Assembly (NCBI GenBank): GCA_965116925.1
Contig: OZ220744.1
Span: 4,160,001 to 4,224,000, forward strand
Length of the DNA stretch: 64,000 nt
From: Candidatus Poribacteria bacterium
GTDB taxonomy: Bacteria > Poribacteria > WGA-4E > PCPOR2b
Reading direction: 5' to 3'
Below are positions 3,468-48,100 of this stretch, one piece after another. Position numbers and translations under genes: made by a program. A model generated the notes under the pieces. That model had not been told where the DNA came from, made no database searches, and worked only from the letters and a program-made list of their open reading frames with translations. Positions within the stretch are counted from its first letter, which is position 1. Every line of letters starts with the position of its first letter.

Positions 3468-3656
3468 GTATTACTATTGTAATCACATTTGCCTCCAAAA
3501 ATTAATAGCCGGGTCAGTTTTGGGAATTGTGGTTTCCCTAGGTATTTTTCATTCGTTTCGAGGTCCGACTGGCACTCGCCTCGCCTATCAACTGGAATGC
3601 TTCCGTTGAAACGACATTTCCATCACCTGACCCGGCTTTTTTATTACGGATCCACG

Positions 3657-4553
3657 ATGAATCCATTCATTCAAATCGCTCAAGGTGTTATTGGAGCGAT
3701 TCTTATATCTGCCTTCTTCATTCTCAGATCAAGTTTCGGTGAAGCACGGCATACGCTTAGCATCATCGGTGCTATCATTATCTTTATCGCAAGTGGCTAC
3801 ATTCTGCGAACACGGTTAATCCGATGGGGGAGCCGGCAGGTCTGGCTCAAATACCATCAAAGGCTCGCATCGTTAGGATTATCGCTTGTTCTCATCCACT
3901 CAGCAGCCCAACCGCTCGTTTGGCATTCGTGGTTGGCGTTTACGTTAGCACTACTCAATCTTGGCACGGGTGTCGCGGTCAGTTTCACCACACATCGCGC
4001 ACGGCGGATTCTTCTCCGCTGCCATCTGGCACTTGCACCAATCTTGCTGCTTTCCGTTGTCCTACATGGTAGAGAAAAGTTAGACCACGATGAATTCTTT
4101 CCTTTGACTGAGGTTCACGACATCCCATGTGCGAAATGCCATACGTCGGAGAAACTGCTATTTACGATTGATCCACACTTTCAGAGCGATTTAGATAGTG
4201 GAGGGATTGTCTCAGAGGACTTGCAGTGGGAGTTTAATCTGCATGGGACTTCCCTCTCTCGACAGACAACGATTTCAACAAAAGAGACGGATAATCGCTG
4301 GCTGGTAACCGATGAAAAAAACGAGGGTGAATATACAGTCAAGAAAGCGGACGATCGGCTAAGTGTCCATACAGATGCTGTGTACGAGGCTTATACCTGT
4401 CTCACCTGTCATGTTCACAATACCCCGGAGATCCAATTTGACCACGAAAGTCATGGGGTCAAATCCTATAATGCCTGCCTCAACTGCCATCAGACTGTTA
4501 TCAATGGGGTAAAATACGGAACTCGAAAGGCGAATTGGGAGTATAATCCGTGA
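3657..4553 (+). CDS. Integral membrane protein with His-containing TM bundle fused to a triheme c-type cytochrome domain
   Basis: Several TM helices with WLKYH, LIH, RCH, VLH histidines; CAKCH, CLTCH, CLNCH motifs; start set at MNPFIQ. Confidence 0.75.
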   Translation: MNPFIQIAQGVIGAILISAFFILRSSFGEARHTLSIIGAIIIFIASGYILRTRLIRWGSRQVWLKYHQRLASLGLSLVLIHSAAQPLVWHSWLAFTLALLNLGTGVAVSFTTHRARRILLRCHLALAPILLLSVVLHGREKLDHDEFFPLTEVHDIPCAKCHTSEKLLFTIDPHFQSDLDSGGIVSEDLQWEFNLHGTSLSRQTTISTKETDNRWLVTDEKNEGEYTVKKADDRLSVHTDAVYEAYTCLTCHVHNTPEIQFDHESHGVKSYNACLNCHQTVINGVKYGTRKANWEYNP

Positions 4554-45171: not shown

Positions 45172-48100
45172 ATGCCCCAGCCCGTCAAATACGACAAACC
45201 CGTCAAATATTATGGTAAACGCGAACGATTGTCTTATGGAAAAATTCCGGAGATTATGGATCTCCCGGATCTCATTGAGGTTCAAAAATCCTCCTACGAA
45301 GAATTCTTGCAACGAAATGCCCCTCTAGAAGCACGGAAAGATAAGGGTCTACAAGCTGTTTTCAACGAAATCTTTCCAATTCCCGACTTCAGCGAAACTT
45401 CCGAGCTCCAGTTCGTTAATTATTCACTGGGTGTCCCAAAATACGACATTAATGAATGCCAATCTCGTGGATTCAGCTATGCGCTACCGGTGAAGGTTTG
45501 TGTCCGATTGGTTCTCAGAGAAAAGGATGAGGATACCGGTGAAAATCAGCTTATTGACATAAAAGAAAACGAAGTTTATATGGGCGAAATCCCGCTCATG
45601 ACGGAAAACGGTACTTTCATTATCAACGGCTCTGAACGAGTGATTGTCAGCCAGCTACAACGATCGCCCGGTGCAACGTTTGGGGAAGATACCCATACCA
45701 GTGGGCAGATACTCAACACTGCAAGGATTATTCCGTATCGCGGTGCGTGGATTGAGTTTGAGTACGACATCAAGGACATGATTTACGTCCGGCTCGATCG
45801 ACGGAAAAAAATGCTCGTCACCGTTCTGCTACGAGCTCTGGGTTGGGAAACGGATGAAACTATCCTCAAGCTGTATGCCAAGGCAGAGCAGGTTAAGCTC
45901 GACGATTCCCTAATTGATCGAGTAACAGCTGCTCCTGTCAAACACCCTGCCACTGAAGAACTTTTGCTTGAAGCGAATGTGGAGTTGACGCAAGAGCAAA
46001 TTGATGAATTGCGTGAGGCAAAAGTCAAAGAAGTTGAGGTTTTAGATGCAGATGAGGCAGAAGATATCCGTTTCCTCCGGAATACGCTCAAGCGCGATCT
46101 CCAATCAGATTACAATCTGCCGCTAATTTTTGAAGTGTCATCAGACGAGGGCTCGTCAAACCTCCAAAATGATTTGACGGAGGGTGCACCAGTATCAGAT
46201 GCCTGGCACCAACAGTTTAAGAACAGTGGCACCTCTCTATCCGCCTCCGCGATTGTGCAAGTATTGACGGAGGGACGATATCGTATATCCAACAAAAACA
46301 GTAGAGATAACTTTACTATTGAGAAAGCAGGGAATACTCTCAAAGTCTATCGTGGTACTATCCAAGATCTCGCAGTCGTTGAGATATTTCGTAAGATGCA
46401 ACCGGGTGATCCGCCGACGATCGATAGTGCACACAACCGATTTGAGAAGCTATTTTTCGATCCAGTGCGTTACGATCTCGCAGATGTAGGACGGTACAAA
46501 CTCAATGAAAAATTGGGGAATCTCTCCCTGTATCGGAACGGAGACGAAGAAGTAAATGAGGAGGTTCGAGTGCTGCGCAAAGAGGACATCGCCGCGGTTC
46601 TCCAATACCTGATACAAGTACAGAACGGAGAAGGGGAGATGGACGATATCGATCACCTCGGTAATCGTCGAGTTCGAGCTGTCGGCGAGTTGTTGCAGAA
46701 TCAGGTACGGATGGGAATGTTGCGAGTGACTCGTGCAACGCGAGAGCGATTGACGGTTCAAGACTTGGAGAGTGTAACCCCCGCCGACCTGATTAATCCT
46801 AAACCGTTGACCGCTGCAATTAAAGACTTCTTCGGTTCAAGCCAACTGTCCCAATTTATGCAGCAAGCCAATCCGCTAGACGAATTAACCCATAAACGCC
46901 GCTTGAGTGCACTGGGACCTGGCGGGCTGCATCGGGAACGTGCGACCTTTGAGGTGCGAGATGTTCATCGAACTCACTACGGACGTGTCTGTCCAATTGA
47001 GACACCCGAAGGTCCATCCGTCGGGCTAATTGTTTCCTTAAGTACCTACGCCCGGGTAAACGCCTACGGTTTTATGGAGACACCCTATCGCAAGGTCTCG
47101 AAAGGCAAAGCAACTGATCAGATTGATTACTTGGCTGCGGACAAGGAAGATACGTTCACCATCGCGCAAGCGCATGCTGTCCTTGATGAAAAAGGAACAA
47201 TGGAAGACGACATGATGGTGACACGCCACAAGGACGATTTTCCGCGGAAGTCAGCGCCAGAAATTGACTATATTGATGTTTCCCCCAAGCAGATCGTCGG
47301 TGTCTCTGCTGCACTCATCCCTTTCCTTGAGCACAATGACGCGAACCGCGCCTTGATGGGGAGTAACATGCAGCGACAAGCTGTGCCGCTCATCCGCCCG
47401 GAGGCTCCATTGATTGGAACGGGCATGGAACATAAAGCCGCTCGTGATTCTGGAGCGGTTGTGATAGCCAAGCGGGATGGCGTTGTGGAAAGCGTATCCG
47501 CCGCTGAAATCATTATTCGTACCGATGATGCCTTCCGGATTGCTGGTGGGGAACAGTCGTTCAGTGAAATGGGCTACGATGTATACCGCTTGACGACCTT
47601 CAAGCGATCGAATAGTGGCACTAGTCTCCACCAACGTCCATGTGTAGATGTCGGAGAAGAGATAAAAGCGGGTCAAGTGATTGCCGATGGAACCTCCACT
47701 GAAAATGGAGAACTTGCCCTCGGAAGCAATATCCTAATCGCATTCATGTCTTGGGAAGGATATAATTATGAAGATGCCATCCTCCTCAACGAGTCGCTTA
47801 TCACTGACGATACCTACACCTCGATCCATATTGAAGAGTTTGAGGTAGAAGCACGTGATACAAAGATGGGACGTGAGGAAATTACGCGAGATATTCCCAA
47901 TGTCTCTGAGGAAGCTTTGGCGCAATTGGATGAGGAGGGGATTATTCGCATCGGTTCGCTTGTCCGTCCCGGAAGCATTCTGGTCGGCAAGGTAACACCG
48001 AAGGGCGAAAGCGACCTCGGTCCCGAAGAAAAACTGCTGCGTGCGATCTTTGGTGAGAAGGTTGGCGAGGTACGAGACGCATCTAAATATGTCAAACCCG

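Follow-up and report, generated by a model that had tools for sequence, protein, structure and literature searches.

Inteins are parasitic inserts that lie in frame in essential proteins, and their termini are a C, S or T residue at the start and HN at the end. Lineage-specific inserts of the bacterial RNA polymerase beta subunit (RpoB) are of the sandwich-barrel hybrid type. Mobile DNA offers further parallels. Two papers describe Rickettsia palindromic elements (RPEs) as short selfish DNA that lies in frame in unrelated genes and is translated as an extra peptide (PMC10969869), and as ~150-bp palindromes, described from Rickettsia, that mostly sit outside genes (PMC10969869; PMC1458961). For R. 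bellii, 53 of 526 RPEs are placed in coding genes in one of them (PMC1458961). Fusion of enterobacterial repeats to open reading frames is mentioned elsewhere (PMC2759123). As for IS66, a table attributes 8-bp repeats to its members (PMC3281130, table), and ISDge4, from the ISBst12 group, is described as a single-ORF element that makes an 8-bp repeat and whose ends, GTAACTGC/GTGACTAC, are imperfect (PMC12898284).

The module described here lies in RpoB and in a cytochrome c-like protein encoded in a 64,000-nucleotide stretch of a Candidatus Poribacteria contig (the window). We regard it as an IS66-driven, protein-coding MITE that was domesticated as an insertion domain, a reading to which we give a probability of about 0.88. 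Like the RPEs, it inserts in frame in unrelated genes; unlike them, it has no hairpin excess, every copy found is in frame, its product is predicted to be globular and is under purifying selection, a transposase family and a target duplication can be identified for it, and it spans several phyla and both prokaryotic domains. With the IS66/ISBst12 group, which has a single-ORF DDE transposase (PF03050), it shares near-identical terminal repeats and the 8-bp target duplication, but it measures 205-220 bp, lacks a transposase, has asymmetric ends edited into sense codons and has an unrelated interior. Like the sandwich-barrel hybrid inserts, it adds a clade-restricted domain to the surface of RpoB, but the predicted topology is beta-alpha-alpha-beta4 and RpoB is one of dozens of hosts. 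It resembles inteins in being a parasitic in-frame insert in essential proteins and differs from them in having neither splicing residues nor an endonuclease, in staying in the protein and in apparently moving by transposition, not homing. Coding MITEs are already known; this one differs in occurring only in frame, in being globular (as predicted) and selected, and in its tie to a named transposase family. No literature on the element was found by title or abstract start in a search of mainly non-subscription journals.

The two copies in the window

An earlier note on this DNA had claimed that RpoB carries an inserted domain, in frame and with no intein termini, which aligns with a stretch of an unrelated cytochrome. 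The insert is confirmed at that place with refined boundaries (Table 1), and the termini of the module are LLF...Y. Measured against relatives with an empty site, the RpoB insert extends over ~46117-46350 and comprises 78 codons here and 73 in close relatives; the element copy itself is ~15 bp longer than the copies of sister genomes. The empty alleles suggest that one codon was later lost in RpoB, giving a net 73 and not 74 codons. The distance between the NTL..D and PGD motifs is 23-40 residues (mostly 29) in empty alleles and 102-107 in simply filled ones.

Table 1. Features of the window bearing on the module.
Feature	Position	Strand	Remark
rpoB host gene, 1378 aa	45172..49308	+	Insert within region matched by Pfam RNA_pol_Rpb2_2
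rpoB element copy, 229 bp, in frame as LIF...KVY	46122..46350	+	Family membership via protein homology
rpoB left 8-bp target duplication, expected place	46114..46121	+	Placed by the family rule
rpoB right 8-bp target duplication, expected place	46351..46358	+	Placed by the family rule
Host of second copy, cytochrome c-like, start codon uncertain	3489..4553	+	Weak cytochrome c matches only
Second element copy, 217 bp	4154..4370	+	In frame

Among 30 RpoB loci, 13 are filled (12 from genus g1 and one from g3), 16 are empty and one could not be parsed. In a tree made by a quick method only, the filled genomes group together as one supported clade; this tree does not resolve genus g2, family f2 and g1+g3. 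The site is cleanly empty in relatives of the filled clade. The RpoB insert is vertically inherited, and its dN/dS is 0.19 vs 0.09 for the remaining stretch. In two studies, 4/4 RNA libraries yielded contigs that run across the insert and hold no joint skipping it; they demonstrate presence only, and DNA may be in the libraries. RpoB homologues of the same clade (P0001-P0114) contain further in-frame inserts, seen in L136, L137, L141 and L142: ~58-aa repeat expansions, an HNH-like domain, a restriction endonuclease-like domain (REase MTES_1575/DUF559) and a nuclease-like piece. Some of these inserts lie within the beginning of the module, and a single HNH-like copy occupies a distant site without it.

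The host of the second copy is a membrane-anchored, multiheme protein of cytochrome c-like type, in which the insert directly follows the first CxxCH motif; the site is also filled in G003, G020, G029, G067, G090, G098 and G112. The alignment with the RpoB insert has 29% identity over 65 aa (E 4e-9 as a pair alignment), in agreement with the earlier observation. Both copies are worn at the DNA level. In rpoB the two expected duplication sites match at 2/8 positions, which is the chance level, and the ends agree with the IS66 terminal repeat at 6/12 and 6/12; for the cytochrome copy the flanking 8-mers (4146-4153 and 4371-4378) match at 3/8, again chance level, while the orthologous site in G098 (L016) has a 5/9 flank match over nine bases. 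Overall, the ends of the window copies score 5-6/12 to the terminal repeat. The best explanation is that both are old, immobile fossils; since their signature is lost and no IS66 transposase is detectable in the genome, they are assigned to the family by homology.

Hosts and taxonomic range

When an HMM started from the two copies was iterated over all six-frame ORFs of the 6.47-Mb genome (G000), the search converged at 16 copies, distributed over 15 ORFs. They lie in RpoB, RpoN, SecA, heme A synthase, an AI-2E transporter, a VWA protein, YibE/F, an O-antigen ligase-like protein, an MsbA-like ABC transporter (two copies), PDZ-HEAT, CBM9, DUF5683 and S1/P1-like proteins, the cytochrome and one unnamed protein. 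With a family HMM whose copies came mostly from other genomes, the RpoB copy scores 1.4e-10. Six other genomes of the phylum add AspRS, BamA, RseP, trigger factor, signal peptidase, CtpA, RpoC (the copy being in G002), ComEC, CCA/poly(A) polymerase, a histidine kinase, CRISPR RAMPs and an MFS transporter; SecD comes in addition from G061. These hosts appear to have neither location nor function in common. Such diversity supports the idea of the earlier note that an in-frame domain spreads among unrelated proteins, essential ones included, and answers its proposal to search the proteome and databases with an HMM from the two copies. Its alternative, a lineage-specific domain found in RpoB and nowhere else, does not apply, because the module resides in many unrelated hosts.

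Matches occur in 97/101 genomes of the phylum, with 6-25 matches each, and the four genomes lacking them belong to families f5 and f6; 41 matches were counted in G112. A profile search returned 2,619 protein clusters (50% identity) at E<=0.001, many of the top matches having several, tandem or overlapping copies. Scanning species genomes with a motif gave 25 loci, all of which (25/25) contain the whole module. Their sources include bacteria (Poribacteria, Sedimentisphaerales, Pirellulales, Phycisphaerae, Chloroflexia, Anaerolineae) and archaea (Methanophagales, Halobacteria, Nanohalarchaeota); single taxon records may be misbinned, since these are metagenome-assembled genomes. Five archaeal genomes carry 1-5 copies each, some in archaea-type genes (AglB, MbhE, EMC6-arch), and five planctomycete or chloroflexan genomes carry 1-4 each, in hosts that include trigger factor and TatC. 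P0229 is not an archaeal Rpo2 but an RpoB-like single-chain polymerase, and it bears the module twice and a longer module once.

At the AspRS site (L353-L381), the module is present in genus g2 (4/4) and in families f2 and f3, and the site is empty in 25/29 genomes of family f1, including G000. Either precise loss or a gene history differing from taxonomy would account for this pattern.

Ends, target duplication and a probable IS66-type driver

When filled hosts are compared with their empty orthologues in G000, the same ends, LLF...LN(I/V)Y, are met at site after site. Filled/empty pairs were tried in 53 cases, of which 22 could be scored; the gain is the core plus exactly three codons in 13/22 and the core plus 2-4 codons in 18/22. 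At 82 independent sites, obtained after collapsing by flank similarity, bases -9..-2 match bases +1..+8 (offset 9, z 8.8) with an identity of 0.42 compared with 0.28, and no other offset from 3 to 18 rises above z 1.7 at the same sites. The match is eight bases long with sharp edges, the ninth base being part of the element. It is a decayed 8-bp target-site duplication. Many of the 82 sites represent independent insertion events, given the collapsing by flank similarity. A typical unit consists of a 214-bp element and the 8-bp duplication, together 74 codons.

The left consensus end reads (G/A)TT(A/G)CTGTTTAG, and the right one, reverse-complemented, reads GTAAATGTTTAG; they are inverted repeats with a mutual match of ~10/12. 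Of five carrier genomes searched for PF03050, the related genome G020 gave 24 matches and G061 a single fragment, and no IS66 transposase came up in G000, G003 and G112; tblastn on G000 was also blank. The G020 element, of the IS66/ISBst12 type, is 1561 bp long, has a single 480-aa PF03050 ORF and carries GTAACTGTTTAG at both ends. Both ends were present in 18/19 loci examined, 14 of these 18 with an exact 8-bp duplication. The element has recently expanded in that genome (L267-L286). The imperfect ends of ISDge4 are similar to these.

The consensus ends of the module lie about one base in 12 from those of the G020 element at each end. Compared with codon-resampled expectation, the similarity is 7.4 vs 6.1 (max 6.4) of 12 at the left end and 7.7 vs 7.0 (max 7.4) of 12 at the right end, so that at both ends the match to the IS66 element exceeds, by this resampling, what amino-acid conservation predicts. 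Base 3 of the left consensus is changed from the A of the IS end to T, which removes a stop in the frame of the module, and at the right end the module has LN(I/V)Y vs LNSY in the IS. The module (~71 aa) has no similarity to the G020 transposase, and none was found between its interior and the IS. Among the traits of a MITE, it has terminal inverted repeats, a target duplication of fixed length, small size, multiple copies and no transposase. The earlier note put forward no mechanism, but the DNA-level boundary motifs that it recommended looking for exist, in the form of the 8-bp duplication and the inverted-repeat ends, and point to a non-autonomous transposon of the IS66 family. Copies also have synonymous codons in common above the codon-usage expectation in 4/4 genomes (0.49 vs 0.37 in G112).

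Young copies and the mode of spread

Metagenomes were scanned, blind to frame, for an end-gap-end pattern, so that the ends of the copies match by construction of the scan. It yielded 66 loci, 16 of which are the module (15 distinct). Each of the 16 measures 205-220 bp, forms an in-frame part of a longer ORF and has a length that becomes a multiple of 3 when 8 is added. Their duplications are perfect in two unrelated hosts (L344, L309), and at least 6/8 positions agree in 6/15; L309, a young copy with a perfect duplication, has an internal stop. The pattern had no match among 286 non-scan loci. Of the 50 other scan loci, 11 are non-coding MITEs with IS ends and perfect 8-bp duplications. The non-coding MITEs at L287, L289, L297, L303-L305, L311, L323, L339, L343 and L345 fall into several unrelated families; they are 204-215 bp long, have these IS66-type ends and are flanked by perfect 8-bp duplications.

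An IS66 MITE origin might have been followed by spread that was mostly independent of the transposase, through gene conversion between copies, through duplication in nested or tandem form and through the horizontal movement of whole host genes. Two module copies in unrelated hosts are 95% identical exactly from the first to the last base and have imperfect duplications (6/8 and 3/8), and gene conversion may therefore also spread or homogenize copies. Tandem and nested copies, the recurrence of trigger-factor, ComEC and RAMP hosts across genomes and the three carrier genomes in which no transposase was found fit the same idea. Against it stand the duplication signal from the flank-collapsed sites, with its many independent insertions, and the perfect duplications in the unrelated hosts L344 and L309. 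We consider spread mostly of this kind very unlikely; it can coexist with the transposition reading, and gene conversion and host-gene transfer have probably contributed.

One argument against IS66-driven insertion is that random insertion should leave non-coding or antisense copies at least transiently. Neither the DNA profile search of G000 nor the 16 metagenome copies gave any intergenic, antisense or out-of-frame copy, and no burst of near-identical copies was seen (median copy identity 0.47 in G000 and 0.53 in G112). The decay of unselected copies can explain their absence for old insertions; for young ones this explanation is unproven.

The encoded domain

AlphaFold2 run with 111 copies gave a confident model (pLDDT 86) with one strand, two helices and four strands, the fold prediction that the earlier note had called for; a single-sequence fold of the young L344 host reached pLDDT 38, too low to be of use. 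Foldseek had no match at E<=0.001. The best structural match among 48,161 chains was profilin (Z 5.4, rmsd 3.2, 73 aligned), within the usual background, and fold searches that end with no clear match (profilin-like and KA1 were tested) do not demonstrate a new fold. In Pfam, no family covers the RpoB and cytochrome inserts, the only row at E<=1 being Cadherin (E 0.15), and none matched more than one of the 111 copies at E<=0.05. NCBIfam gave no match for the RpoB insert, PDB sequences no clear match (best E 0.018) and a search of the ESM Atlas by features no match at 0.9. Mean-field covariation over 534 copies recovers core contacts; an N-to-C pair is confounded by the target duplication. The model points to a small protein domain that probably folds by itself.

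In 5/5 hosts, RpoB included, dN/dS is 0.04-0.39 from pooled, non-independent pairs. Judged by these ratios the module is under purifying selection, and it would accordingly seem to be translated within its hosts.

Selection and a confident fold might also be expected of an ordinary promiscuous domain for interaction, anchoring or targeting, which recombination or shuffling spread and which hosts retained for their own use. Its fixation in orthologues across several families and the tandem arrays in some proteins agree with such a role. However, a domain of this sort predicts no 8-bp duplication, no IS-like ends and no length rule; the hosts are cytoplasmic (RpoB, AspRS, RpoN), membrane (CtaA, TatC, MFS) and envelope proteins (BamA, CtpA, signal peptidase), close orthologues do without the module, and the conserved columns are mostly hydrophobic core. 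We find this very unlikely. A self-removing element (mini-intein, intron or RNA-structured palindrome) would be tolerated in essential genes, as the module is, but merits next to no credence given the non-intein termini, the lack of Hint domain or splicing residues in the alignments and in Pfam searches of 111 copies, the mean folding z of -0.08 over 45 copies, the RNA-library contigs (presence only) and dN/dS <1.

Proposed origin

According to the preferred reading, the module would be at once an open reading frame and a non-autonomous, MITE-like member of the IS66 family with ISBst12-type ends. Its ~12-bp terminal inverted repeats would be recognized by a transposase acting in trans, which would insert the element and thereby duplicate 8 bp of the target. 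The sum of element length and 8 is a multiple of three, as in 214+8, and the change from A to T at the third base of the left repeat would turn the stop of the parental end into Leu. With this stop gone, the repeats can code for the first strand (LLF) and the last one (LN[I/V]Y), and the length rule and stop removal together would let one of the six frames and orientations add a compact beta-alpha-alpha-beta4 domain and leave the gene unbroken. Copies in permissive loops would survive, kept folded in vivo by purifying selection and inherited vertically, and disruptive or non-coding copies would be lost. We lean slightly toward the further view that the domain was born de novo from transposon ends and interior and was selected at the element level as frame-neutral and self-folding.

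The birth and insertion of new domains are usually inferred after DNA traces have vanished. Here the traces survive: a named transposase family, end repeats read as beta-strands, 8-bp duplications at dozens of sites, matched empty alleles and copies ranging from perfectly young to fully decayed. They make transposon-driven domain birth and insertion directly testable. As a natural map, the sites also mark loops that tolerate insertion in RpoB, RpoC, SecA, AspRS, BamA and trigger factor, and the module may be used as a source of clade-specific markers for Poribacteria and possibly as a compact insertion scaffold. If de novo birth is true, it is a splice-free counterpart of the intein strategy, and through it one selfish element grew into a family of proteins that counts thousands of clusters in bacteria and archaea.

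A second module with the same ends

A second module, of 87 aa, was observed in archaeal records (L383-L385 in G101 and G103; P0229, P0246, P0158). It follows the same arithmetic (262 bp + 8 = 90 codons) and has xLF...LN(I/V)Y ends as in the main module, with flank matches of 5/8, 2/8 and 6/8 in three DNA copies. In a profile comparison of the two modules only the last 18 columns were aligned. It is probably a sister coding MITE, and this family with the same ends suggests that IS66-type ends have made coding modules more than once.
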